Source: a virus
Lineage: Duplodnaviria > Caudoviricetes
Strand: one strand, 5' to 3'
Length of the DNA stretch: 64,000 bases
IMG/VR virus record: IMGVR_UViG_3300033068_001747
Shown here: piece by piece, positions 4,375 through 51,630 of the stretch
Numbering within the stretch: position 1 is the stretch's first letter
How the letters are laid out: every line of letters starts with the position of its first letter
Program-made: the position numbers and the translations under genes
The notes under the pieces: generated by a model
Told to the model about the DNA's origin: nothing
The model's input: the letters and a program-made list of their open reading frames with translations, nothing else
Databases searched by the model: none

Positions 4375-5112
4375 ATGGATTTTGGAAAAGATTTTAGAAA
4401 ATATGCTTTAAGTGAGGGTATTTCTTCTATGAATTTACATTACTTTGAAAAAGGATTAGTAGAGAATAGTATGACACCATACATTCTTGAAGAAAGAGAA
4501 ATGAGGGTAACGCAGATGGATATTTTTAGTAGACTTATGCGAGATCGTATCCTATGGGTTGCTGGTGTTGTAAACACACAAATGTCAACTGTAGTTCAAG
4601 CTCAATTGATGTATTTAGATTCAGTTGAAAATAAAGACATCACAATGCACGTTGATTCACCAGGTGGTTCAGTATTAGCTGGATTAGGTATGGTTGATGT
4701 TATGAGATATATCAACTCCGATGTTGCAACAATCAATACTGGTATGGCCGCATCAATGGGTTCTATTCTTTTATCATCAGGAACTAAAGGGAAACGTTCT
4801 TCTTTGAACTTCTCTAAAGTAATGATTCACCAAGTTTCTTCAGGTGCATCAGGACACGTTGAAGATAATCGTATTTCTCAAATGGAATCAGAAAAATACA
4901 ACTACGTTCTTTTCAAAATGTTAGCTGAAAATAGTGGTAGACCTTTTGATGAAGTTTTAGAAAGTGCTAGAAGAGATAAATGGTTAAACTCACAAGAAGC
5001 TTTAGACTTTGGATTTATTGACGAAATTATCATCACTGATAAAGCAACACCAATTTCAACTTATCTTGAAGGCTTTGATGATTACTACACAAAAGAAATC
5101 TTAAAGAAATAA
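4375..5112 (+). CDS. clpP: ATP-dependent Clp protease proteolytic subunit
   Basis: MDIFSRLMRDRI, DSPGGSV, GMAASMG, MIHQ motifs. Confidence 0.96.
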   Translation: MDFGKDFRKYALSEGISSMNLHYFEKGLVENSMTPYILEEREMRVTQMDIFSRLMRDRILWVAGVVNTQMSTVVQAQLMYLDSVENKDITMHVDSPGGSVLAGLGMVDVMRYINSDVATINTGMAASMGSILLSSGTKGKRSSLNFSKVMIHQVSSGASGHVEDNRISQMESEKYNYVLFKMLAENSGRPFDEVLESARRDKWLNSQEALDFGFIDEIIITDKATPISTYLEGFDDYYTKEILKK

Positions 5113-5142
5113 ATTAAAACCCACTGAAAAGTGGGTTTTTTA

Positions 5143-6534
5143 TTATGAACATTCTGGACAATCAACTTGACCACCATCACATACATCACAAAAGACTGAA
5201 CCACCACCGTGACATACAGGACAAGGCTCACTACTAGCATCCCCACCAGAACCATCACAATTAGGACAATCAATTTCCGAAGCCCCATTACATTCTGGAC
5301 AATCAACTTGACCTTCACCTGAACACACAGGACAAGGTTCATCATCATCATAAGGACCACCATCAGTATCAGTTAGTTCAATATAACCACTAAAAGTACG
5401 ATTAGATATAACACCAGTTTTTGGATTATAATACTTCATAGTATCCATATAAGGATAAGGACTATATTCACCTTTCTTTAAAGTAATAACTACCTCTGAT
5501 TCTCCATGATCTAATTCTACACCGTCTTGAACCAATGGGGTTGTTGAACTGTAATTCTGAGATTCTTTATGATAATATCCTTTAGAATCACAATACTCTA
5601 TAAATAAAAGTATATCTGGTGTTCTAATTATATAAATTCTATCCATAATACGTCTACCTTCATCATCTAACCAAAGAATTGCTCTACCAGCAATCTTTGA
5701 AGAATCTTCTTCACTCAATAAAATTACCATTGATACTCTTTCTGGATTATTGACATAAATATCAAAGAAATCTTGACATCTATCATAACGCATACAAGAT
5801 CCGCCTAAAGATCCAGACTCTGCCTCATAATTATCTACCAAATAACAATGTTTTATATCCTCTCCTTTAATTTCTTTAAATCTTGAGAAGACATCAGTTT
5901 CCATTTGTAAAACCTTCTTATATTGATCAACAAATTTTTCAATTTCTACATCAGTAAACTTTTCACCTAATTTTGTTAGAAATGCTCTAATAAATCTTCC
6001 AACATTCACATCAGTATTTCTTATTGATGCGAAATCTTTAACCAAATTACTCTTAGGTGTAATACAATCAAAAGTATTTGAACCTGAACCAAATTGGAAA
6101 ACAACCATTGTTTCCCCATTATTATACATATACTCCCAAACACCACTAGGAGATATTTCAGATAGTTCTTCTAAAGTAAAAATTTTTGTAATCTTACCTC
6201 TTTCCCCATTTCTAGGTTCTCCAAAATTGTGTATAAATCCTCTTGCTGCCTTGGATAAGTTATCATAAATAGCACCCTTACTCAAAACCTTATATTCTAC
6301 TTTATCAATCTTATCTTGTGGTTTAAAAAACACACTGTCAATTTTATCTTTATTTACATCAATATAGTTTCTATCAATGTCTTTATCTTCACCTCTAAGT
6401 GAAATAAGTTTATTTGCAATAGGAGAATCTATTTTATTTAAGACTTCCATAAAATTAGTAGTAAATACAATTTTAGCTTCTAAAATCAATTCTAATTTAC
6501 TTTCTGTTATATAATCATAGTAGTTTGTAATCAT
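5143..6534 (-). CDS. Phage protein with SCM/GRAxLW/MDRxY core and C-terminal CxxCxGxG zinc repeats (paralog 1)
   Basis: GSCMRY, GRAILW, MDRIY, YPYMDTMKYY; CxxCxGxG repeats; N-terminal ...YITE leader. Confidence 0.75.
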   Translation of the reverse strand: MITNYYDYITESKLELILEAKIVFTTNFMEVLNKIDSPIANKLISLRGEDKDIDRNYIDVNKDKIDSVFFKPQDKIDKVEYKVLSKGAIYDNLSKAARGFIHNFGEPRNGERGKITKIFTLEELSEISPSGVWEYMYNNGETMVVFQFGSGSNTFDCITPKSNLVKDFASIRNTDVNVGRFIRAFLTKLGEKFTDVEIEKFVDQYKKVLQMETDVFSRFKEIKGEDIKHCYLVDNYEAESGSLGGSCMRYDRCQDFFDIYVNNPERVSMVILLSEEDSSKIAGRAILWLDDEGRRIMDRIYIIRTPDILLFIEYCDSKGYYHKESQNYSSTTPLVQDGVELDHGESEVVITLKKGEYSPYPYMDTMKYYNPKTGVISNRTFSGYIELTDTDGGPYDDDEPCPVCSGEGQVDCPECNGASEIDCPNCDGSGGDASSEPCPVCHGGGSVFCDVCDGGQVDCPECS

Positions 6535-39262: not shown

Positions 39263-40105
39263 ATGGTAACAAGAGTAGCACCCTCTCCAACTGGTTTTTT
39301 CCACTTAGGAACTTTAAGAACTGCACTACTTGCTTGGCTTCAAGCAAGAGCTAATAACGGTACATTCATTTTAAGAATTGATGATACCGATCAAGAAAGA
39401 AATAAACCAGAGTGGATTGATTATATCTACGAGCAAATGTCTGAGTTTGGTTTAGATCACGACATTACTTTCAGACAATCTGAGAGATTAGACCGTTACA
39501 GAGAAGTAGCTGAGAAAATCGGTACTAAAACTGAGAATGGTTACGAGTTAGATATGGGAGAGTACTCAATGGTTATTCTTAGAAATAACGGGTTCCCTAC
39601 ATATAACTTCTGTTCAATTTTAGATGATTATGACTATGATGTAACTAATATCATTAGAGGTGTTGACCACATTGCAAATGAGGCAAAACAACGTATTATC
39701 TGGGATAAGATTTGTGAAGTAGAAGGAGATAAAACATTTCCAGTAATTACACATGCTGGATTACTTTTCGACGGTAATGCTAAATTATCTAAGAGAAAAG
39801 GTAATGGTACAACAGAAGATTACAAAGATTACAGTAGAGCTGCTATCTTAAACTGGTTGGTTAAATTTGGTTGGTCACACCCAGATCCATTGTTTGATAA
39901 GAAACACCCTACTTTAAGTATAGACGAAATGATTGCTCTTTTCAACGAAGGAAACATTTCAGATAGAAACTGTAAAATCGATAAAGCTAAATTAGAGTTC
40001 CTAAATAAAAAATGGAAAGCAATTGAGAAAAGAGGTGGTGCAGGTTCAACAAAAGAAATCGTAGTTGAGTCAAAACTTTTAAAGTTTGACGAGTTTCAAA
40101 AATAA
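39263..40105 (+). CDS. gltX: Minimal glutamyl-tRNA synthetase-like protein without anticodon-binding domain
   Basis: TRVAPSPTGFFHLG, LRIDDTD, GFPTYNF, IIRGVDH, KLSKR; 280 aa. Confidence 0.85.
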   Translation: MVTRVAPSPTGFFHLGTLRTALLAWLQARANNGTFILRIDDTDQERNKPEWIDYIYEQMSEFGLDHDITFRQSERLDRYREVAEKIGTKTENGYELDMGEYSMVILRNNGFPTYNFCSILDDYDYDVTNIIRGVDHIANEAKQRIIWDKICEVEGDKTFPVITHAGLLFDGNAKLSKRKGNGTTEDYKDYSRAAILNWLVKFGWSHPDPLFDKKHPTLSIDEMIALFNEGNISDRNCKIDKAKLEFLNKKWKAIEKRGGAGSTKEIVVESKLLKFDEFQK

Positions 40106-40137
40106 TAAAAAAAGTCTTACATTTTTGTAAGACTTTT

Positions 40138-40605
40138 TTATTTTTTATATCTTTCTAAATCAAATTTTCCATAAACACGTTTTTCATCTAAATAAATCTT
40201 TATATCATAAATTAGTATTTTATTCATACTATATTCATATGGAAGATTTCTACCCAACCAGTCTTTAAACTTGTCATCATTCATATCATAATACTTAGAT
40301 TCAACGTCACCATCATTATCAAGTGATCTTAAATCCAATAAACTATTCTTTAAATAATATGTCTGTTCTAAATAATGATAGAAAGGAATAATATAATCTT
40401 TTATATTATTCCAATGTAATGGTTTTTTAAATGAGACTTTAACGTAAGTACCATAAACATGACTATTGTTGGTACAAACTAATGAAACATTATCATCATC
40501 AAGTAAATAAGCTAAATGTTGTTCACAAAAATCTTGAAACTCTTCCTTAAATTGTTGTTTCATTTCTTGTTGACTCTTAGCTTCAAACAATTTAATATAC
40601 TTCAT
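40138..40605 (-). CDS. LAYLLD-family paralog with MKYIKLFE leader
   Basis: FCEQHLAYLLD, WNNIKDYIIPF. Confidence 0.6.
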   Translation of the reverse strand: MKYIKLFEAKSQQEMKQQFKEEFQDFCEQHLAYLLDDDNVSLVCTNNSHVYGTYVKVSFKKPLHWNNIKDYIIPFYHYLEQTYYLKNSLLDLRSLDNDGDVESKYYDMNDDKFKDWLGRNLPYEYSMNKILIYDIKIYLDEKRVYGKFDLERYKK

Positions 40606-40653
40606 AGTGTATATATTATTTATTTTATATATATTTGTAAAAATTTAGAAATC

Positions 40654-41298
40654 ATGAGTAAGTATAACAGAACATATCATTTACCTTGGTCACCTGGAAC
40701 TACCAGTGATGATAGAATATCTAATAGTGTCGAATCACTATTGGGTACAGAGATTGTTATTACTGAAAAGTTGGATGGTGAAAATTGCGGAATGACAGAT
40801 GAAGGAGTTTATGCCAGAAGTCATGCTACCTTTACAACGTCTCCTTGGTCAAGAGAAGTAAGACAACTTCATAAAGTTAAAGTAGAGAATATGTTAGGAG
40901 AAGGAGTTCTCTTATTTGGAGAAAATATGGAAGGTATTCACTCAATTGAATATAGTAATCTTGAGTCATACTTTTATATTTTCGGTGTTAGAGATAATGA
41001 AATTTGGATCCCGTGGGAACAAGTTGAAGAGTATTCTTACTTATTAGATATACCTACTGTACCAGTTTTATTTAAAGGTGTTGTAAACACAGTTAAAGAA
41101 TTACAAGAAATTGTCGAAGATTTAGTAAGTAAACCTTCTGAATTAGGTGGACAAAGAGAAGGTATCGTAGTAAGAAATGCAGGAATGTTTCACAATGACG
41201 ACTTTGCAGATAACGTAATGAAATGGGTAAGAAAGGGACACGTTCAAACAGATGAACATTGGACTAGAAATTGGAAGAAAGCCGAAATAAAAAGATAA
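40654..41298 (+). CDS. RNA ligase family protein
   Basis: KY.RTYHLPWSPG...DD, EKLDGEN, FGEN, EGIVVR, KWVR. Confidence 0.85.
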   Translation: MSKYNRTYHLPWSPGTTSDDRISNSVESLLGTEIVITEKLDGENCGMTDEGVYARSHATFTTSPWSREVRQLHKVKVENMLGEGVLLFGENMEGIHSIEYSNLESYFYIFGVRDNEIWIPWEQVEEYSYLLDIPTVPVLFKGVVNTVKELQEIVEDLVSKPSELGGQREGIVVRNAGMFHNDDFADNVMKWVRKGHVQTDEHWTRNWKKAEIKR

Positions 41299-42286: not shown

Positions 42287-42348
42287 AATATCAATTTTAT
42301 TTTTATATATTAAATAAAAAATTAGTACATTTGTAAAAATTATAAATC

Positions 42349-43254
42349 ATGAAGACAAATCTAAAAATTAAAATACTTATCGGAGTACCTGCTTCCGGCA
42401 AATCTACGTGGGCCAAAGATTTTGTAAAAGCAAATGATAATTGGACCAGAGTTAGTAGAGACGACTTTAGAGAAATGTTAAAAAACTCTGGAGTTGTGGA
42501 AAATAAAGTTGAAAATATAATCAATGAATTGGTTGATGCAACAATAGAACAATCATTACTTAAAAAAATGAATGTTATTGTCGATAACACAAATTTAAAA
42601 GATAAATATATTCAAAACATTATTGAGAAGTTTAAGTATAGTGCCGATATAGACTATCAAGTCTTTGATATATCAAAGGACAAAGCGATAGAAAGAGACA
42701 GACAAAGAGATAAGTCTGTAGGTCCAGTTGTTATCAATAAAATGTATAAAGAATATAAAATTCTTATGGATTCATTTGACTTTCAACCTGTCAAAAAAAT
42801 GACAAGACCTCACTTGACCCCAAATTTCAACTCACCTAAACAAGGTGCTGTTATATTTGACATCGATGGTACACTTGCACTTATGGGTCGTAGAGGTCCA
42901 TTTGATTGGATGCAAGTTTATAAAGACGATTTGAACGAAATTGTATCGGAACAGTTACAATTTCATAAAGATAAAGGTAGAAAAGTAATTATTGTAACTG
43001 GTCGTGACGAAGTTTGTCGAGAAGTTACCGAAGAATGGTTAGACTTTCACGGTATTCAGTTTGACGAAATGTATATGAGACCAAAAGATGATTATAGAAA
43101 AGATACCTTAATTAAAAAAGAAATATACGAAAATCATATTAAGCCAAATTATAACTTACTTTGTGTTTATGATGATAGATTAAGTGTAGTTAGAACTTGG
43201 AATGAATTAGGAGTATTTGTATTTAATGTAAATCAAGGAACACATCAATTTTAA
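42349..43254 (+). CDS. pseT: Polynucleotide 5'-kinase/3'-phosphatase (T4 PseT-like)
   Basis: GVPASGKST, SRDDFR, DNTN; IFDIDGTLA, TGR, YDDR. Confidence 0.93.
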   Translation: MKTNLKIKILIGVPASGKSTWAKDFVKANDNWTRVSRDDFREMLKNSGVVENKVENIINELVDATIEQSLLKKMNVIVDNTNLKDKYIQNIIEKFKYSADIDYQVFDISKDKAIERDRQRDKSVGPVVINKMYKEYKILMDSFDFQPVKKMTRPHLTPNFNSPKQGAVIFDIDGTLALMGRRGPFDWMQVYKDDLNEIVSEQLQFHKDKGRKVIIVTGRDEVCREVTEEWLDFHGIQFDEMYMRPKDDYRKDTLIKKEIYENHIKPNYNLLCVYDDRLSVVRTWNELGVFVFNVNQGTHQF

Positions 43255-43321
43255 AGTAAGCAGAGAACCTATCGCTGGAAACAGAGGAAGTTCGCGACTA
43301 CAAAACCTCATTACATATATA
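43253..43321 (+). ncRNA. rnpB: RNase P RNA, 5' fragment (5' strands of P1, P2, P4, P5, P6 plus a mini P3)
   Basis: GAGGAAGTTCGCGACTAC resembles the conserved GAGGAAAGUCCGGGCUCC; complementary to 47103-47250. Confidence 0.75.
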
Positions 43322-43369
43322 TTAAAACTTTTAAACATAAAATAAATATATATTTTAAATAATAAAACT

Positions 43370-43777
43370 ATGTTATTAACTAAAAGCGTTGAATATGCTA
43401 TTAAATCACTCATACTAATCAATTATGATAGTAAAATAAATATCGAATATATTAGTTCTAAACTAGATATACCTAGAAGTTTCACATCAAAAATATTACA
43501 AGTACTTGTAAAAAAGGACTACATCTCTTCTAAAAGAGGCCCAGGTGGTGGTTTTGTAGTAAATGATTATTCAAAAACATTAAAAGATTTAATATGTGAT
43601 ATTGATCATAAATTTGATTATGATAAATGTGTTATGGGATTAAGTGGCTGCTCTGATGAGAATGCTTGTCCTTTACATGAAAATTTCAAAGAAATTAAAA
43701 ATAAAATTTTAAACGAATTAATGATATTAAAAATATCAGATATTTGTAAAAATCCAAATAAAGTTTTAAAACTATAA
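43370..43777 (+). CDS. Rrf2 family transcriptional regulator
   Basis: KSVEYAIKSL, SKRGPGGGF, C-x5-C-x5-C. Confidence 0.9.
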   Translation: MLLTKSVEYAIKSLILINYDSKINIEYISSKLDIPRSFTSKILQVLVKKDYISSKRGPGGGFVVNDYSKTLKDLICDIDHKFDYDKCVMGLSGCSDENACPLHENFKEIKNKILNELMILKISDICKNPNKVLKL

Positions 43778-43800
43778 GAATATTTTTTATATATATAATA

Positions 43801-43832
43801 ATTGTAGATATGAATGTCTTTTTATCTACAAT
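43801..43832. promoter_or_regulatory. Inverted repeat, candidate Rrf2 operator upstream of nrdD
   Basis: attgtagata-N12-tatctacaat perfect 10-bp arms. Confidence 0.45.
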
Positions 43833-43852
43833 TAAAAAAATTATATAAAACT

Positions 43853-45631
43853 ATGTTTACAAAATTAGATGAATTACAAAAAAAGGTTAAAAAGGATTTT
43901 ATAAAGAATTATATAAACTCCAAGAATGCAGCAAGTGGATCATTATTTGATCCAAATTCAAATGTTACTTCTAAAAATATTGCAACTTTAGAAGCAGAAT
44001 TAAACAAAGATATTAACATACAAGTTAATAGGTCTCTTATCTATTCTAAAATAGAAGAAAATTTTGGAACAGAAATGGCAGACTCATATATTAAAGACAT
44101 TGAAGACCACTTAATATATGTTCATGATGAGACATCATTGAAGCCATATTGTGTGAGTATCTCAATGTATCCGTTGTTATTAAATGGTTTAAGTGGCTTA
44201 GGTGGTGAGTCGAAAGCACCTAAACACTTAGCAAGCTTTTGTGGTTCATTTATTAACCTTTTATTCTCAGTGTCATCACAGTTCGCTGGTGCAGTAGCTA
44301 CTGTGGAATTCTTACTTTACTTTGACCACTTTGCAAGATTAGATTATGGAGATGACTACTTAACAACACATAAAAAAATAATAGAGAATGAGTTACAACA
44401 TGTAGTTTATGCTATTAACCAACCTGCCGCGGCAAGAGGTTATCAATCAGTATTTTGGAATATATCTTTATATGATATTGAATATTTTAATTCAATGTTT
44501 GGTGACTTTGTTTTTCCTGATATGGATAAACCAAACTATAGTAGCTTAGATAAACTACAGAAGTTTTTCATGAAATGGTTTAATAAAGAAAGGGAAAATG
44601 CGGTATTAACATTCCCTGTAATCACAGCAGCTATGTTGACTAAAGATAAAAAAGTATATGATGTTAACTTTGGTAACTTTTGTGCAGAAGAGTTAAGTGA
44701 AGGTAATTCATTCTTTATATATCAATCAGAAAGTGCAGATTCATTAGCATCTTGTTGCAGACTAAGAAATGAAATATCTGATAATACTTTTAGCTACTCT
44801 CTTGGTGCTGGTGGTGTATCCACTGGTTCTATAAATGTGATAACTATTAATATGAATAGACTTATTCAAAAAGATATTAGTCTAGATGATTTATTAGATA
44901 GAATATATAAATATCAAATGTCATACCGATATTTAATACAGGATTACTTAGATGCTAAGATGTTACCTGTTTATGATTCTGGTTTTATATCAATTGATAA
45001 ACAATTTCTAACAATAGGTATAAATGGTATGGTTGAATCCGCAGAATATCTTGGAATTGAAATATCAGATAATGATAAATATAAAGACTATATCAATAGT
45101 AGATTGAAAACAATATATGATAAAAATAAATTAGCAAAGATTGAATATGGTTGCATGTTTAATACTGAATTCGTCCCTGCTGAAAATTTAGGAGTAAAAA
45201 ATGCTAAGTGGGACAAAGAAGATGGTCTATTCGTAACAAGAGACTGTTATAACTCATACTTTTATATAGTTGAGGACGAGTCACAGAATGTAGTAGATAA
45301 ATTCTTTTTACATGGAAATGATTATATAAAATATCTAGATGGTGGTAGTGCATATCATTGTAATTTAGAAGATTATCCTACAAAAGAAGGATTCTTTAAG
45401 CTATTAAATGTATCAGCTTATACTGGTTGTAATTATTTTTGCTTTAATATAAAAGTAACAATATGTAATGATTGTGAACATATAAATAAAAAGACTGAAT
45501 ACCATTGTGTGAAATGTGACAGTAGAAATGTAGATCACGCTACAAGAATAATAGGATATCTTAAAAGAATAACTAGCTTCAGTAAAGATAGACAAAAAGA
45601 AGCAGCAAAAAGATATTACAATCAAAAATGA
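43853..45631 (+). CDS. nrdD: Anaerobic (class III) ribonucleotide reductase
   Basis: PYCVS, SCCRL, PAENL, CNDC..CVKC, RIIGYL glycyl-radical motif. Confidence 0.95.
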   Translation: MFTKLDELQKKVKKDFIKNYINSKNAASGSLFDPNSNVTSKNIATLEAELNKDINIQVNRSLIYSKIEENFGTEMADSYIKDIEDHLIYVHDETSLKPYCVSISMYPLLLNGLSGLGGESKAPKHLASFCGSFINLLFSVSSQFAGAVATVEFLLYFDHFARLDYGDDYLTTHKKIIENELQHVVYAINQPAAARGYQSVFWNISLYDIEYFNSMFGDFVFPDMDKPNYSSLDKLQKFFMKWFNKERENAVLTFPVITAAMLTKDKKVYDVNFGNFCAEELSEGNSFFIYQSESADSLASCCRLRNEISDNTFSYSLGAGGVSTGSINVITINMNRLIQKDISLDDLLDRIYKYQMSYRYLIQDYLDAKMLPVYDSGFISIDKQFLTIGINGMVESAEYLGIEISDNDKYKDYINSRLKTIYDKNKLAKIEYGCMFNTEFVPAENLGVKNAKWDKEDGLFVTRDCYNSYFYIVEDESQNVVDKFFLHGNDYIKYLDGGSAYHCNLEDYPTKEGFFKLLNVSAYTGCNYFCFNIKVTICNDCEHINKKTEYHCVKCDSRNVDHATRIIGYLKRITSFSKDRQKEAAKRYYNQK

Positions 45632-46080
45632 GATTTAAAGAATATAATATAGTATTCCAAGAGATACCTAATGAGGTATCTCTTTGTTTCTCTATAACAG
45701 GTTGTAACCTAAGGTGTGATGGTTGTCACTCACCATTTTTATGGAAAATTAATAGCGGTGATTTATTAACAATAGATGTATTAAATACACTTTTAAAAAA
45801 ATATGATAAGATTATATCTTGTGTTCTTTTTATGGGTGGAGAATGGCACACTAAAGAGTTTATTAAAACATTATCTTATATTAGAAGCATGGGTATAAAA
45901 ACCGCTTTATATACAGGGTTAGAACTTGATGATGTTAGTGTGGATATTAGAAATAATTTAGACTATTTAAAGTTTGGACCTTGGATAAAAGAATTAGGTG
46001 GACTTCAATCAAAGACAACAAATCAAAAATTATTAAATATAAATAATGATGAGTGTTTAAATCACTATTTTATTAAATAA
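45628..46080 (+). CDS. nrdG: Class III RNR activase (radical SAM)
   Basis: GCNLRCDGCHS. Confidence 0.93.
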   Translation: MRFKEYNIVFQEIPNEVSLCFSITGCNLRCDGCHSPFLWKINSGDLLTIDVLNTLLKKYDKIISCVLFMGGEWHTKEFIKTLSYIRSMGIKTALYTGLELDDVSVDIRNNLDYLKFGPWIKELGGLQSKTTNQKLLNINNDECLNHYFIK

Positions 46081-46331
46081 ACTTTTTCAATATTAGATTA
46101 TTTAAAGATTAAAATATAAATTAAATTATGACTTTTATAAATATCAGAAATTATTAACCACACTTATAATATGATTCAAAGGATTTTGAACGATTAATGA
46201 TGTTAGGAATAATCCAAATGGATTAGGTGGACAAGCTATGACAAGAACATAAACAATATTTTAAACATGAATATTCTTTTATTCTAAAAGAAAAAATAAC
46301 AATAGAGAGAACAACAAATGAATAAGATTTT

Positions 46332-46553
46332 ATGAAAGTAGTTTGTATAAAAAAATACCTATCTACCAATTTAAGATATGAACTTACTTATGGTAAAATA
46401 TATGAAACTCTACCTAAGTTTCCTAATGATTTAGAAGATGATTATAGAATAGAGTGTGATAGAGGTTTTATAGAATTTTATAGTAAAGATACATTTATAA
46501 CTTTAGAAGATTGGAGAGAACAACAAATAAATAAAATTGTAAATGAATATTAG
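46332..46553 (+). CDS. Small protein with C-terminal tag (paralog of 48878)
   Basis: KVVCI...LT.GK.Y...FITLEDWREQQINKI. Confidence 0.55.
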   Translation: MKVVCIKKYLSTNLRYELTYGKIYETLPKFPNDLEDDYRIECDRGFIEFYSKDTFITLEDWREQQINKIVNEY

Positions 46554-46824
46554 ATGTATATTTGGACATAAATGGGAACTTTCTAAAATAGAAAGAGAGA
46601 TTGAATATAACTTACCTAAGCTTGGTAAAAAAGGTGCTTGGAATGGTTCAGGTAGAAAGGTTATTATGACTACTTCTGATGATATTAGAATATGTAAAAG
46701 ATGTTATAAGAAACAAAAGGCAATGTATAGTCCATTTAGTCATGTTAGAATTGCAGATTGGAGGAATGATGAACTCAGTAAAGATGAACTTAGAGATAAA
46801 AAATTAAAAGAATTAGGTATATGA
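46543..46824 (+). CDS. Zinc-finger-like protein with C-terminal tag
   Basis: CIFGHKW...CKRC; ELRDKKLKELGI. Confidence 0.6.
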   Translation: MNIRCIFGHKWELSKIEREIEYNLPKLGKKGAWNGSGRKVIMTTSDDIRICKRCYKKQKAMYSPFSHVRIADWRNDELSKDELRDKKLKELGI

Positions 46825-47087
46825 GTCTTAAATTAATAGCCAAAAAAACACATATTGTACGTAAAAACATTCAAGGTAATGGTAAAACTAGCCATATTAT
46901 TGAAAAAGGTCAAATATTTACCATCTTTGTCAAACATATTACAAAGTATGACAAAGATGGTGAATTGGTGACTGTTTGTATATACCATATAAAAGATGGT
47001 TGGATTATAAATTTTAAAAACTTTACAACAAAGGAGAAATATACTGCAATCAAAAGACAACATATATTAGATCAAATATTAGGTTAA
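46821..47087 (+). CDS. Hypothetical protein with C-terminal tag
   Basis: IKRQHILDQILG. Confidence 0.5.
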   Translation: MSLKLIAKKTHIVRKNIQGNGKTSHIIEKGQIFTIFVKHITKYDKDGELVTVCIYHIKDGWIINFKNFTTKEKYTAIKRQHILDQILG

Positions 47088-47102
47088 TAAATAAATAAAA
47101 AT

Positions 47103-47250
47103 TATATTTGTAACTTAGGAGACTAACGTCGTTTGTACTAAGGAAGTAGCAAGTCAAACAGTTCGAGGGTGTCGGTTTCCCTATGAGAATGGGTTGATGC
47201 AAAGATAAATGATAGGATAGAACAAAATCGCGGCTAAGCTCACTTACTTT
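47103..47250 (+). ncRNA. rnpB: RNase P RNA, 3' fragment (P5 3' strand, P15-P17, 3' strands of P2, P4, P1)
   Basis: GTAGCAAGTCAAACAG, GGGTTGATGC, AGATAAATGATAGG and ACAAAATCGCGGCT match conserved RNase P segments. Confidence 0.78.
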
Positions 47251-47304
47251 TTAAATTAAAATAAACTTTCATATTTTAAAAACTATACTTAAAAAAAACA
47301 ACTT

Positions 47305-48369
47305 ATGTTAACAACTTTGCTAATTTTAGCTTTACTTGCAGTTTGTATCTTTGAATTTGTAAATGGATTTCACGATACTGCTAATGCCGTTGCGACGGTA
47401 ATTTACACAAAATCTTTAAAACCTAAACAAGCAGTTGTTTGGTCAGGAATTATGAACTTTCTTGGACTTATGACTGGTGGTGTAGGTGTCGCACTTAGTA
47501 TTGTAACACTAATACCCAAAGAACTAATCACTGATACTAACATATACCACTCTATGGGAATGGTTATGTCAATTCTTATTACTGCAATTTTTTGGAATTT
47601 AGCAACTTGGTACAAAGGAATTCCTGCTTCTTCTTCACATACTTTAATCGGCTCAATAATTGGAGTTTCTGTAGGTTACTCTATTTTAACTGGTGTAGAT
47701 TACACTAATTGGGGTAAAATTATTGATATAGGAAAAGCGTTAGCTTTCTCACCTTTATTAGGTTTCACTATGGTTATACTTTTAATGTGGTTTCTAAACA
47801 AAGTTATCAAAAGAAAAGATGTATTTGAAGAGCCAAATGGTGATACTCCACCACCAACTTGGATTAGAGCGACTTTAATTTCAACTTGTACATTAGTTTC
47901 ATTTTTTCACGGAAGAAATGACGGTCAAAAAGGAATTGGTTTAGCAATGATTATACTTATGGCTTTCTTACCTACTTACTTTACATTAGAAACTGTTGAA
48001 AATCCACCAATGTGGGTTATGTGGATGATTGCTACGTCATTAGGATTAGGAACAATGATTGGTTGGAAAAGAATTGTAGTTACAATTGGAGAGAAAATTG
48101 GTAAACAACACTTAACTTATGCACAAGGTGCTTCTTCTGAATTAGTTGCTGCAATCACAATTGGATTATCAACTGCATTTAAACTACCAGTATCAACAAC
48201 ACACATTCTAAGTTCTGGTATTGCAGGGTCAATGGTGGCATCAAAAGGAATAAATAATTTAAAAACTAAAACAATTAAAACAATATTATCCGCTTGGATT
48301 CTTACGTTACCAGTAACAATTGTGGTATCATGTGGATTATTTCTATTATTTAGATATATTTCAGGATAA
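47305..48369 (+). CDS. pit: Inorganic phosphate transporter (PiT family)
   Basis: NGFHDTANAVAT, P.SSSH, HGRND, PVSTTH. Confidence 0.93.
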   Translation: MLTTLLILALLAVCIFEFVNGFHDTANAVATVIYTKSLKPKQAVVWSGIMNFLGLMTGGVGVALSIVTLIPKELITDTNIYHSMGMVMSILITAIFWNLATWYKGIPASSSHTLIGSIIGVSVGYSILTGVDYTNWGKIIDIGKALAFSPLLGFTMVILLMWFLNKVIKRKDVFEEPNGDTPPPTWIRATLISTCTLVSFFHGRNDGQKGIGLAMIILMAFLPTYFTLETVENPPMWVMWMIATSLGLGTMIGWKRIVVTIGEKIGKQHLTYAQGASSELVAAITIGLSTAFKLPVSTTHILSSGIAGSMVASKGINNLKTKTIKTILSAWILTLPVTIVVSCGLFLLFRYISG

Positions 48370-48877: not shown

Positions 48878-49132
48878 ATGAAATTAGAAAAAGGTACAAA
48901 AGTAAAATGTATTAGAAATACATTCAATGGTTCTTATCGTCATGGTGAGATTGCTTTCCCTTATTTAACAGTTGGTAAAACTTATACTGTTGTGATGGAT
49001 TTTGGACCTACACTTGCTATGATAGCTGATAATGGACACGGTTTATCTCTTGGAAAAGATTTATTTATAACATTAGAAGATTATAGAGAAAAACAAATTG
49101 AAAAAATTTTTAAAAAAGATTTGGTAGATTAA
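48878..49132 (+). CDS. Small protein with C-terminal tag
   Basis: LTVGKTY...FITLEDYREKQIEKI. Confidence 0.55.
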   Translation: MKLEKGTKVKCIRNTFNGSYRHGEIAFPYLTVGKTYTVVMDFGPTLAMIADNGHGLSLGKDLFITLEDYREKQIEKIFKKDLVD

Positions 49133-49170
49133 AAAAGTCACCGTATCTTTGTCAAAGAAATAAAATAAGG

Positions 49171-49253
49171 GCTTACAAGAGTAGTAGCTATTGGAAAAGT
49201 AAATCCTCTTATCATTGATAATGAAACTTTATGTTGGCGGTGGTATTGTAAGC
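49171..49253 (+). ncRNA. Candidate small RNA closed by an 8-bp terminal stem
   Basis: gcttacaa/ttgtaagc stem directly behind a promoter cassette. Confidence 0.45.
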
Positions 49254-49341
49254 AATTAAATTTTCATAGAAATTTTGAAAAATAATTGAAAAAAGATTTG
49301 GTAGATTAAAAAAGTCACCGTATCTTTGTCAAACAAAATAA

Positions 49342-49428
49342 GGGAAGATATACAAGTCTGGTCAAAGTAGGCTACCGGTGAGGTAGTCGGTTTTATATCT
49401 TCGAGCGGTTCGAATCCCTCTCTTCCCA
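49342..49428 (+). tRNA. Atypical tRNA-like RNA (loop CGGTGAG, nominal GTG anticodon, long variable region)
   Basis: gggaaga/tcttccc acceptor, GGTTCGAATCC T-arm with a bulge; G33 instead of U33. Confidence 0.55.
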
Positions 49429-49700
49429 CAAAAAAAATTTTAAAAAAGATTTGGTAGATTAAAGAATACTCCTTATCTTTGTCAAACAAAATACGAGTTA
49501 TGAGTTGTGGCTCGAAGATTAAACCAAAACTCAAAAAAAATTAAAAAAAGTTAAAAAAGATTTGGTAGATTAAAAAAGTCTTCTTATCTTTGTCAAACAA
49601 AATAAAAATGTGTGTTACCGGAGTTATGAGTTAGAATACAACTTGTAAGTATAGACGGGCTGCTGATGAAGTTGGTCCGCTCCCTAACCACAAAAAATCT

Positions 49701-49811
49701 GGTCTGTTCGTCTAGCGGATGTCACTTCGGTGATAGGACGACACTTCTACGCTTAAATGTGCCCTGGTATATGGAGAGGTGTAAACAAAGGTTCGAATCC
49801 TTTACAGACTA
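49701..49811 (+). tRNA. tRNA-Glu-scaffold repeat A (extended arm, no canonical anticodon loop)
   Basis: ggtctgt/acagact, D-loop UUCG hairpin insert, 8-bp stem with 26-nt loop, T-arm. Confidence 0.7.
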
Positions 49812-49931
49812 CAAAAAAAAATGAAAAAAGATTTGGTAGATTAAAAAAGTCTTCGTATCTTTGTCAAACAAAATAAGAGTAGGTGTCTTGTGAAATTCTT
49901 GACTTCTTGGTGTACGATAGCACAACTCTTC

Positions 49932-50018
49932 GGTCTGTTCGTCTAGCGGTGTCACTTCGGTGACTAGGACAACTTCCCTTTCAGGAAGGAAACGCGGGTT
50001 CGAATCCCGTACAGACTA
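49932..50018 (+). tRNA. tRNA-Glu-scaffold repeat B (6-nt loop CTTTCA)
   Basis: cttcc-CTTTCA-ggaag retains TTC. Confidence 0.75.
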
Positions 50019-50080
50019 CTGCTTTAATGGAATTTTAAGCTTGAGTTTTGTGATGGAACTCTTTAAAGAACTATCACATC

Positions 50081-50169
50081 GGTCTGTTCGTCTAGCGGTT
50101 CACTTCGGTGATAGGACAACTTTTCAGTGAGTGATGAAGTAAACGCGGGTTCGAATCCCGTACAGACTA
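50081..50169 (+). tRNA. tRNA-Glu-scaffold repeat C (non-canonical arm)
   Basis: Same acceptor, D and T sequences; arm acttttca-gtgag-tgatgaagt. Confidence 0.7.
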
Positions 50170-50234
50170 CAAATAAAATATAGGTGGTTACACGCCAGTA
50201 ATGGTGTGTGTATCAAAGAGGTAAGCCACTTATC

Positions 50235-50322
50235 GGTCTGTTCGTCTAGCGGATGTCACTTCGGTGACTAGGACATCTTCTCTTCGGAGTTGGGAACGCA
50301 GGTTCGAATCCTGTACAGACTA
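50235..50322 (+). tRNA. tRNA-Glu-scaffold repeat D (UUCG tetraloop in place of the anticodon)
   Basis: ctc-TTCG-gag caps the anticodon arm. Confidence 0.7.
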
Positions 50323-50339
50323 CAACAAATAAAACATAT

Positions 50340-50412
50340 CGCGGGATAGAGCAGTAGGCAGCTCGCAAGGCTCATAACCTTGAGGTCACAGGTTCGAGTC
50401 CTGTTCCCGCTA
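50340..50412 (+). tRNA. Initiator tRNA-fMet (CAT)
   Basis: C1:T72 mismatch, CGCGGGA acceptor, CTCATAA loop. Confidence 0.9.
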
Positions 50413-50494
50413 CTAAGTGTAAATGTCATTCTGTAATGTTGACAAGTTGGTACTTTTAGTATCCATCTTTAGTGTAATTAAAACACGACACTTC

Positions 50495-50607
50495 GGTCTG
50501 TTCGTCTAGTGGACGTTTACTGAACACAAAGCTTCGGCATTAAAGTAAAGTAAACAGGACTTCTCCCTTAGAAGGAGACAACGCGGGTTCGAATCCCGTA
50601 CAGACTA
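50495..50607 (+). tRNA. tRNA-Glu-scaffold repeat E with TAG anticodon and long D-loop insert
   Basis: tctcc-CTTAGAA-ggaga canonical 7-nt loop; D insert closed by gtttact/agtaaac. Confidence 0.7.
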
Positions 50608-50627
50608 CAATGCTTGGTCGCCAGGTA

Positions 50628-50704
50628 GTTACATAGTTTAACTAAAACACGAAGTATCGCCTTGTTTGCGGTGAAGGATGTGAGTGTAAAATCTCGCTGT
50701 AACA
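50628..50704 (+). ncRNA. Degenerate tRNA-like element
   Basis: gttaca/tgtaac ends, gttt/aaac D-like stem, gtgag/ctcgc T-like stem. Confidence 0.35.
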
Positions 50705-50780
50705 CAAAAAAGTAAAAATAATTTTGGTAGTTTAAACAACTTTTATTATCTTTGCTCTATAATAAAGACAAAAAGATTAC

Positions 50781-51630
50781 GTTCTTTGAAAATATTGTAT
50801 TATCCAACTAGTCACTTCGGTGGTTAGTAAAATGATAATCGGCGGTGTATCGTCGTTAAATAAACTACGAAAGTAGGATAAAGTGGAATCAACGTTAAAT
50901 GGTTCTGCGGCTCGTAAGAGCTCGAGTACACAAGTGGGATATCCAACGTCCTGATTAACCGAGGGCTTACGCTGTAGGTGAAATGGAATTTGGACTTGGC
51001 AATGTGGATTGTCGAGTTGATGTGGGAACACCAATAAGAATAACCCATAGGAACTCTGTAAGAAAGGTAGCTCCAACTATCTGATTGCGGGTTCCAATAT
51101 AAAAGGCAACTTAAAACCGAAAGGTAAGGTAGAGAACAGGTGGTGCTGCTACTATCCCTACTAAATGTCTACCAAGACGTTAGTTTGAAGTTTTCTTGAA
51201 GTATGGAGGCTGGGAGGCTTCACGAAGGAGTTTAGTATTTCGTTGTTCAAAAGATAACGAAGCTTACGACAGACCACTTCTTCGACACATCCACGAACAC
51301 AAAAGCAATTTACATTTGAAGTAAAATTTAAACATAAAAAGCGAAAGTGTCTGTCAGGTTTCAACGAAAGTTGACTACATACTTAGGAGCTGTTCCTAGG
51401 ACGTCAAGACCGCAAGTTAAGACGTATTCTTGCCAAAAACCTCTAAGGGGTCGAACCCTTAATCAGACCGCAAGTTTGAAGAGAGTTGAGTAATAAGAGA
51501 GTAGTTGAAACCTCAAGAAGTGATTAGTCTAACTAATCGTCAATGAGAATTACAATCCAAAAGATTGTGGATACGAAGAGAAACAATAATTCTTCAAAAG
51601 ATTCTTACAAGATGGCATAATCTCAGCCTA
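50781..51630 (+). ncRNA. Large structured ncRNA (~850 nt), GOLLD-like
   Basis: GC-richer than its flanks, no credible ORF, many GNRA/UUCG hairpins; own promoter at 50723-50754, boxA-like gttctttgaaaat, terminator at ~51665; next to a tRNA cluster. Confidence 0.6.

Follow-up and report, generated by a model that had tools for sequence, protein, structure and literature searches.

The window, i.e., the whole 64,000-nt stretch of DNA analyzed here, belongs to the virus record IMGVR_UViG_3300033068_001747 of the IMG/VR database (Duplodnaviria; Caudoviricetes) and contains a gene of an RNase P-like RNA that lies in two intergenic islands. The first island (43253-43308) directly follows the gene pnkp, encoding a polynucleotide kinase-phosphatase, and the second (47112-47250) precedes the gene pitA, encoding a phosphate transporter. 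An earlier reading of the DNA alone (the original prediction) placed rrf2, nrdD, nrdG and three small open reading frames (ORFs) in the interval between the islands, and Pfam searches confirmed this content. Judging by their sequence and predicted pairing, the islands together make up, as its 5′ and 3′ portions, a phage RNase P-like RNA without a specificity domain (S-domain). It is a homolog of the type A RNase P RNA of bacteria and has the layout of the catalytic domain (C-domain) of the latter. The gene in two halves, i.e., the separation of an RNase P gene by an operon, is new here. Coordinates of the features are given in Table 1.

Table 1. Features of the divided RNase P-like RNA gene and of the surrounding locus (window coordinates)
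Feature	Position	Strand	Basis or remark
Promoter-like site of pnkp, -7-like box TACATTTG	42327-42334	+	
pnkp, tRNA-repair-type polynucleotide kinase-phosphatase	42349..43254	+	Pfam HAD_PNKP 2.9e-42, AAA_33 1e-16
5′ half of mini RNase P-like RNA	43253..43308	+	R1 17.4 bits, E 0.013; 55/55 identical to contiguous relatives
P1	43253-60 / 47243-50	+	inter-half helix
P1b, GAG	43263-65 / 47239-41	+	inter-half helix
P2	43268-74 / 47210-16	+	inter-half helix
P3 hairpin	43275-84	+	within 5′ half
J3/4 and P4 5′ strand	43285-97	+	P4 = 43289-97 / 47228-35, U43292 bulged, all 8 pairs form
P5	43298-301 / 47146-49	+	inter-half helix
P6	43303-07 / 47174-78 in P17 loop	+	inter-half pseudoknot
Inserted block, 3803 nt	43309..47111	+ (strand of RNA gene)	blastn breakpoints vs G001
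Left edge arm TTACATATATA	43311..43321	+	native upstream region of rrf2
rrf2-family transcriptional regulator	43370..43777	+	Pfam Rrf2 1.1e-18
nrdD, anaerobic ribonucleoside-triphosphate reductase	43814..45631	+	Pfam NRDD 2.2e-103; blastn to phage nrdD genes
nrdG-like radical-SAM activase	45628..46080	+	Pfam Fer4_12 1.1e-9, Radical_SAM 1.2e-5
Three small ORFs (73, 93, 88 aa), function unassigned	46332..47087	+	part of a long small-ORF array in other contigs
TATATTTG, TAnnTTTG-type -7-like box, TTAG 20 nt upstream	47103..47110	+	imported with block
3′ half of RNA	47112..47250	+	R1 114.8 bits, E 1e-24
Stub hairpin in place of S-domain	47114-47142	+	
P15	47153-57 / 47194-98	+	P16 and P17 also in 3′ half
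L15 GGG	47191-93	+	
AGAUAAAUG plus P2 3′ strand	P2 3′ = 47210-16	+	CR-IV/V-like; CR-V-like strand ACAAAAUCGCGGCUAA follows
pitA/PHO4 phosphate transporter	47305..48369	+	Pfam PHO4 1.9e-78; downstream neighbor of contiguous RNA in relatives

Contiguous relatives of the divided gene were collected by pattern scans of IMG/VR and then with the covariance model R1, constructed from nine contiguous relatives (alignment A1) with the window left out, which gave 37 full-length members besides the window. R1 matches both islands, so their pairing in the order of the RNase P catalytic domain, as originally predicted, is not a matter of chance, and all the pairings that had been claimed, namely P1, P2, P3, P4 with its bulged U, P5 and P6, are present. 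When the joined halves are placed on the family alignment, 57 of the 59 pairs are formed, 34 of which link one half to the other; the two unformed pairs belong to an extension of P3 that has no counterpart in the short-P3 subgroup. The joined halves keep 103 of the 104 invariant columns, the exception being T47190 in place of C. The CR-I-like sequence GAGGAAGUUCG is also present. No further copy of the RNA was found by R1 in the window or in the 132-kb record, which is a fragment, so that this absence says little.

The collected members (n = 37) are contiguous, with the exception of one lineage interrupted by a homing endonuclease (L086/L089). When phage records were searched with the region by blastn, the 3′ island matched an uncultured phage of 635 kb, in which a contiguous RNA of about 225 nt contains both islands in the order of the window. 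The length of the contiguous genes is about 195-300 nt, and that of the window RNA, if joined, would be about 196 nt. Unaided RNAalifold predicted P1, P4, P5, the stub hairpin, P15, P16 and P17. The hand-drawn structure, including the P2 and P6 pseudoknots, is paired in 96.4% of cells across the nine relatives, compared with 30-41% in slid-partner controls, and none of 500 shuffles matched it in any measure. Covariation in related phages, which had been suggested as a check, supports the fold: double-sided changes were found in 27 of the 59 pairs of the nine-relative alignment. All eight pairs of the P4 pseudoknot (CR-I/CR-V, with the bulged U) are 100% paired in the nine relatives, four of them with double changes; P15, P16 and P17 covary, while the pairs of P6 are invariant and hence uninformative. 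The GGG of L15, the putative site of CCA binding, is invariant.

The S-domain is represented in all relatives by a stub of 29 nt with two helices; P7-P14, CR-II and CR-III are not present in the family RNA. Accordingly, the expectation of little or no S-domain holds in that the domain is nearly absent, and it is not wholly absent, since the stub remains. This near-absence characterizes the family as a whole and was not produced by the break. P18, present in some relatives, is absent from the window RNA, as had been noticed originally.

At Rfam gathering thresholds, no RNase P RNA was detected in the window, where GOLLD RNA and three tRNAs were found. With relaxed thresholds, the sole RNase P match was that of the 3′ half to RNaseP_arch at 14.9 bits (gathering score 84; E 0.3), in an alignment that skips the S-domain of the model, and RF00010 gave no match in the phage's own genome. 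Contiguous members matched better: L015 (40.7 bits, E 9.8e-9) and L008 (25.3 bits, E 6.8e-4) to RNaseP_arch, L048 to RNaseP_bact_a (RF00010; 37.7 bits, E 2.6e-8) and L079 to an Rfam RNase P model (36.7 bits, E 5.7e-7). These relatives were aligned by cmscan with about 100-150 model positions deleted at the S-domain. The weak match of the window itself, and the fact that no member scanned reached the Rfam gathering score (84-100, against 25-41 bits in contiguous relatives), could suggest that the likeness to RNase P is superficial and that the islands are another structured RNA or chance pairings. Such an explanation is extremely improbable in view of the independent matches of several contiguous members at E 1e-8 to both archaeal and bacterial type A models, and of the CR-I- and CR-V-like sequences, the bulged-U P4, the GGG of L15 and the P6 pseudoknot, which occur in the correct order and covary. 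Genes of the family are, moreover, often located beside or within arrays of tRNA genes. Chance matches inside coding DNA were recognized among the candidates and rejected; these are L039, L040, L042, L045 and L049, despite an 18-nt CR-I motif, and the pattern-scan loci L003, L005-L007, L013 and L016. Literature searches returned no paper on an RNase P RNA encoded by a virus, and the family was also not found in Rfam 15.

The gene order in the nearest relatives is pnkp, contiguous RNA, pitA. In G001, genes whose PNKP and PitA proteins are 95-97% identical to those of the window flank a contiguous RNA located in a 241-nt gap, and the flanks of the window are 87-92% identical to G001. In the blastn comparison with G001, positions 1442-2434 of L052 correspond to 43308-42319 of the window and positions 4-1442 to 48555-47111, which sets the breakpoints at 43308 and 47111/47112 with an ambiguity of one base at each end. 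The break occupies the linker of 3 nt that connects P6 with the stub hairpin, i.e., it is at the boundary of the catalytic and specificity domains, in agreement with the original placement of the break where the S-domain would be attached.

The block between the breakpoints is 99.1-100% identical to the ENA/Logan contigs L058, L060, L062 and L068-L074, where it has another gene context. Contigs with this donor context were found in public assemblies by exact look-ups of the Rrf2 and 88-aa proteins. In them the block is embedded in an extended series of small ORFs, with those of 81, 92 and 84 aa on its downstream side, and is not a discrete unit. At the left end of the homology, CT is followed across the joint by CATTACATATATATT, which belongs to the upstream region of rrf2, and the sequence of the left arm also precedes rrf2 in the donor-context contigs L060 and L062-L067. 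The right end of the homology, TTATATTTGTA immediately before the joint, lies 4 nt ahead of the ATG of the 81-aa ORF. Microhomology with the RNA gene is limited to CT at the left joint and TA at the right joint. These sequence comparisons point to a very recent arrival of the block by illegitimate recombination: identity to the donors is 99% or higher in the insert, against a difference of about 10% between the backbone and its nearest contiguous kin.

The ability of the block edges to pair with each other (10 of 11 pairs between 43311-43321 and 47103-47113), pointed out in the original prediction, is real, but the helix is weak (-4.8 kcal/mol), and its arms pre-exist in the donor context. Such a helix arises in 0.4% of random segment pairs and in 2.2% of those that are AT-rich. 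Since both edges are native to the donor context, the pairing arms and the TAnnTTTG box are donor sequence carried along with the block.

Outside the window, the split form was detected in two other samples, the run of one of them supplying the contigs L059 and L075 and that of the other the contig L061; it appears to be one clone. A share of 0.67-0.76 was obtained for many freshwater and wastewater runs, about the same as the block in its donor context alone would give, so it is no measure of the spread of the split form. Neither nrdD nor the 88-aa ORF was found in the contigs of relatives, which are fragmentary records whose lack of a gene says little. The locus is plastic in general: in G002 (L054 2746-3323) pnkp is absent and the RNA directly follows the promoter-like sequence of pnkp, in G003 about 500 nt of extra DNA lies between pnkp and the RNA, and in G004 about 1.5 kb lies between the RNA and pitA (L050 and L051 correspond to G003 and G004).

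The only other interrupted member found is L086, identical to L089. In this lineage (L089:4027-4953, minus strand) an insert of about 650 nt with an ORF for a GIY-YIG endonuclease of 206 aa occupies the slot of P18, which is likewise peripheral; the true 3′ strands of P2, P4 and P1 follow the ORF, and a degenerate partial copy of the AGAUAAA region precedes it. A second gene, of the GIY-YIG/NUMOD3 type, follows in L089 at 5021-5575.

The stop codon of pnkp overlaps the first bases of P1, and pnkp and the RNA abut in the same way in the relative G001; therefore, the RNA gene is probably co-transcribed with pnkp, from the promoter-like site of the latter. For the 3′ half, a second site may be provided by the TAnnTTTG-type box of the block. 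Units of the form TTTG-N20-TAnnTTTG are represented in this phage by six repeated cassettes at 49103-50754, and TATATTTG with its TTAG fits this type. In the donor context the ATG stands 4 nt past the box; with this spacing, the predicted start of transcription is near 47114, where the stub hairpin begins. TAnnTTTG was not found to be enriched upstream of ORFs in general, and the use of such boxes is backed only by the extended promoter-like sites and the repeated cassettes. The cassettes are 49 nt long (GATTTGG...N20...TATCTTTG) and their six copies are located at 49103-49863 and 50706-50754 of the window (+); they fit the Bacteroidota promoter type TTTG / TAnnTTTG, which hints at the phylum of the host.

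A gene of 280 aa similar to tRNA-synt_1c and a gene of RNA ligase (PF09414) were found upstream of pnkp (window 39263-41298, +) from the gene calls of L059. With pnkp, these genes make up a neighborhood of tRNA repair or processing around the RNase P-like gene. The gene of RnpA was not found in the 132-kb record, in which, as a fragment, such an absence says little. In a 642-kb uncultured phage (L002; LR756502.1, 1661-4315 and 6001-6470), a homolog of rrf2 with 68% DNA identity follows an array of 11 tRNA genes at a distance of about 1.7 kb.

Other structured RNAs are encoded downstream. A full-length GOLLD RNA (51223-51629, +; 324 bits, E 5e-92) is located 4 kb downstream of the 3′ half, directly after an array of tRNA and tRNA-like sequences. 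The latter comprise five units (49701-50608, +) with a shared acceptor stem GGUCUGU/ACAGACU and T-arm, an extra hairpin of the GUCACUUCGGUGAC type in the D-loop region and differing anticodon-arm regions. None of the five was called by ARAGORN, which reported only tRNA-Met at 50340-50413, and a similar unit in L010 gave a weak Rfam tRNA match with two insertions.

The comparisons show that a gene of about 196 nt for an S-domain-less RNase P-like RNA was cut very recently by the 3.8-kb block, copied from a co-circulating phage by illegitimate recombination at 2-nt microhomologies and inserted in the same orientation. For the present state of the gene, the following can be proposed. The 5′ half would now be made within a pnkp-rrf2 transcript, and the 3′ half either by read-through or from the imported TAnnTTTG box, within 4 nt of the stub hairpin. 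The halves would join through the 34 inter-half pairs of P1, P1b, P2, P4, P5 and P6, the operon either forming a loop within one long transcript or being missing because two separate RNAs associate in trans. In complex with RnpA of the host, the assembled RNA would trim 5′ leaders of phage tRNAs.

Whether the split gene still yields a working ribozyme is evenly balanced. The specific case of a natural two-strand RNase P ribozyme, with its catalytic domain in two pieces, a six-gene operon between them and 34 inter-strand pairs rebuilding it in trans or with the operon looped out, caught soon after the split, has a probability just short of even. Function is slightly favored by the permissive site of the break, the same-strand orientation and the promoter-like box abutting the 3′ half; as the block lies on the strand of the RNA, a single transcript from the promoter-like site of pnkp could hold both halves. 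A dead relic, in which an accessory RNA gene was destroyed, the halves are perfect only for lack of time to decay, RNase P of the host suffices and the lineage is transient or neutral, is also a serious candidate, its probability being somewhat below even. Several observations favor such a relic and weigh against a working ribozyme. The contigs L059, L061 and L075 are each 100% identical to the window over 2.6-9 kb, and the exact junction patterns had no match in IMG/VR or JGI metagenome contigs, the window's own record being outside the scan. The split form being clonal, there is no evolutionary evidence of its retention, and the insertion is so recent, with the block 99-100% identical to donor copies and the flanks differing by 8-13% from those of the nearest contiguous relatives, that a dead gene too would be expected to have intact halves. 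Neither the edge helix nor the promoter box is an adaptation, both having come from the donor context. Nested RNAcofold recovered P1, P1b and P4 as inter-strand helices, but the binding energy, in which the pseudoknot helices are uncounted, was -6.6 kcal/mol against -7.1 +/- 3.1 kcal/mol for shuffled 5′ halves, i.e., not above the shuffles. The 56-nt 5′ half has little structure alone and no defined 3′ end, and T47190 replaces a C that is invariant across alignment A1, although a G-U pair is retained there and A-C occurs at this position in L008 and L009. The original prediction had named relatives with only a contiguous gene, together with an untranscribed or inactive copy here, as the mark of simple disruption by a recent nrdD insertion; as regards contiguity this is what was found, the closest relatives being contiguous at the same locus and the block being very recent and confined to one clonal lineage. 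The other collected members, save the lineage with the homing endonuclease, are contiguous as well, and the locus is a general hot spot of gene gain and loss, as seen from G002 without pnkp and from the extra DNA on both sides of the RNA in G003 and G004.

Against a dead relic stands the position of the insertions. By a rough count, loops and linkers make up about 13% of gene positions, yet both insertions seen in the family, the break in the window and the one in the P18 slot of L086 (= L089), occupy such peripheral sites, as expected if survivors are filtered for function; the larger AT-rich essential stretch 47202-47227 was spared. Besides, huge phages of very different kinds share this strongly conserved RNA family, and the RNA was kept in G002 when pnkp was lost. 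The gene might also be made whole before use, the block being an intron removed by RNA splicing or a segment excised from DNA in a programmed way during infection. Only the 10/11 inverted complementarity of the edges speaks for this, and it is very improbable, as no group I or group II intron or other ribozyme family was detected in 43150-47350 at E up to 10, no gene of recombinase or maturase is present in the block, the direct repeats at its ends are only 1-2 nt long, and its edges are ordinary intergenic sequence of the donor, where the block is not a discrete unit. A self-splicing intron as the identity of the block was likewise rejected, with no intron core at the ends and edges of ordinary intergenic DNA.

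The break is located at the one joint where a split in RNase P has the best prospect of being tolerated and provides a natural test of two-piece function. Split and unsplit forms can be compared directly in vitro with the help of the near-identical contiguous relatives L008 (1250-1445) and L010, to see if two strands can build a minimal catalytic domain and what activity the split costs. If the split form is active, it would show the onset of fragmented ribozyme genes, with a random insertion surviving at a permissive joint; if it is dead, the case is one of common gene disruption, and the phage can do without an RNase P of its own for a short time. The locus is also an example of the transfer of nrdDG cassettes from phage to related phage through illegitimate recombination within AT-rich regulatory sequence.

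To our knowledge, no natural split RNase P RNA is known. The closest known system is bacterial type A RNase P RNA (rnpB, or M1 RNA; RF00010 of the Rfam clan CL00002), with which the phage RNA shares the order of P1-P4 with the bulged U, P5, the pairing of P6 into the loop of P17, P15 with GGG(U) in L15, P16, P17, the CR-I-like GAGGAAGUUCG and the CR-IV/V-like AGAUAAAUG...ACAAAAUCGCGGCUAA. Unlike the bacterial RNA, it is phage-encoded, about half the size and below the gathering threshold, its S-domain is a 29-nt stub, P18 is absent here, and the gene consists of two parts separated by 3.8 kb. M1 RNA can be reconstituted from fragments, which is one precedent for reassembly from pieces. The C-domain alone, which cleaves pre-tRNA, and bimolecular ribozymes of C- and S-domains, broken at the C/S boundary and rejoined by pairing, are reported to be active in vitro (PMC5839562, PMC6783828). 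Compared with these engineered constructs, the break in the window is topologically at the same place; in contrast, the break here is natural, P1 is left open, the C-domain itself consists of two strands, and six protein genes lie between them. Archaeal type T RNase P RNA of Pyrobaculum and relatives (PMC13462272) has likewise lost almost all of the S-domain; type T is archaeal, multi-protein and contiguous, in contrast to the phage RNA with its bacterial P6 and GGG of L15. An archaeal type T catalytic domain without bacterial P6 and L15 was not found, and the best Rfam matches of the members scanned are to other RNase P models, RF00373 and RF00010. The same source describes RNase P RNA as a single RNA wherever the enzyme is RNA-based (PMC13462272). 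The phage gene also resembles RNAs fragmented in nature, in which a peripheral loop was rearranged, the pieces reassemble by base pairing and protein genes sometimes lie between them. Such RNAs include trans-spliced group II introns split in a peripheral domain, two-piece tmRNA and the scrambled pieces of mitochondrial rRNA. Those systems are old and conserved across lineages, whereas the split in the window belongs to a single, very recent clone.

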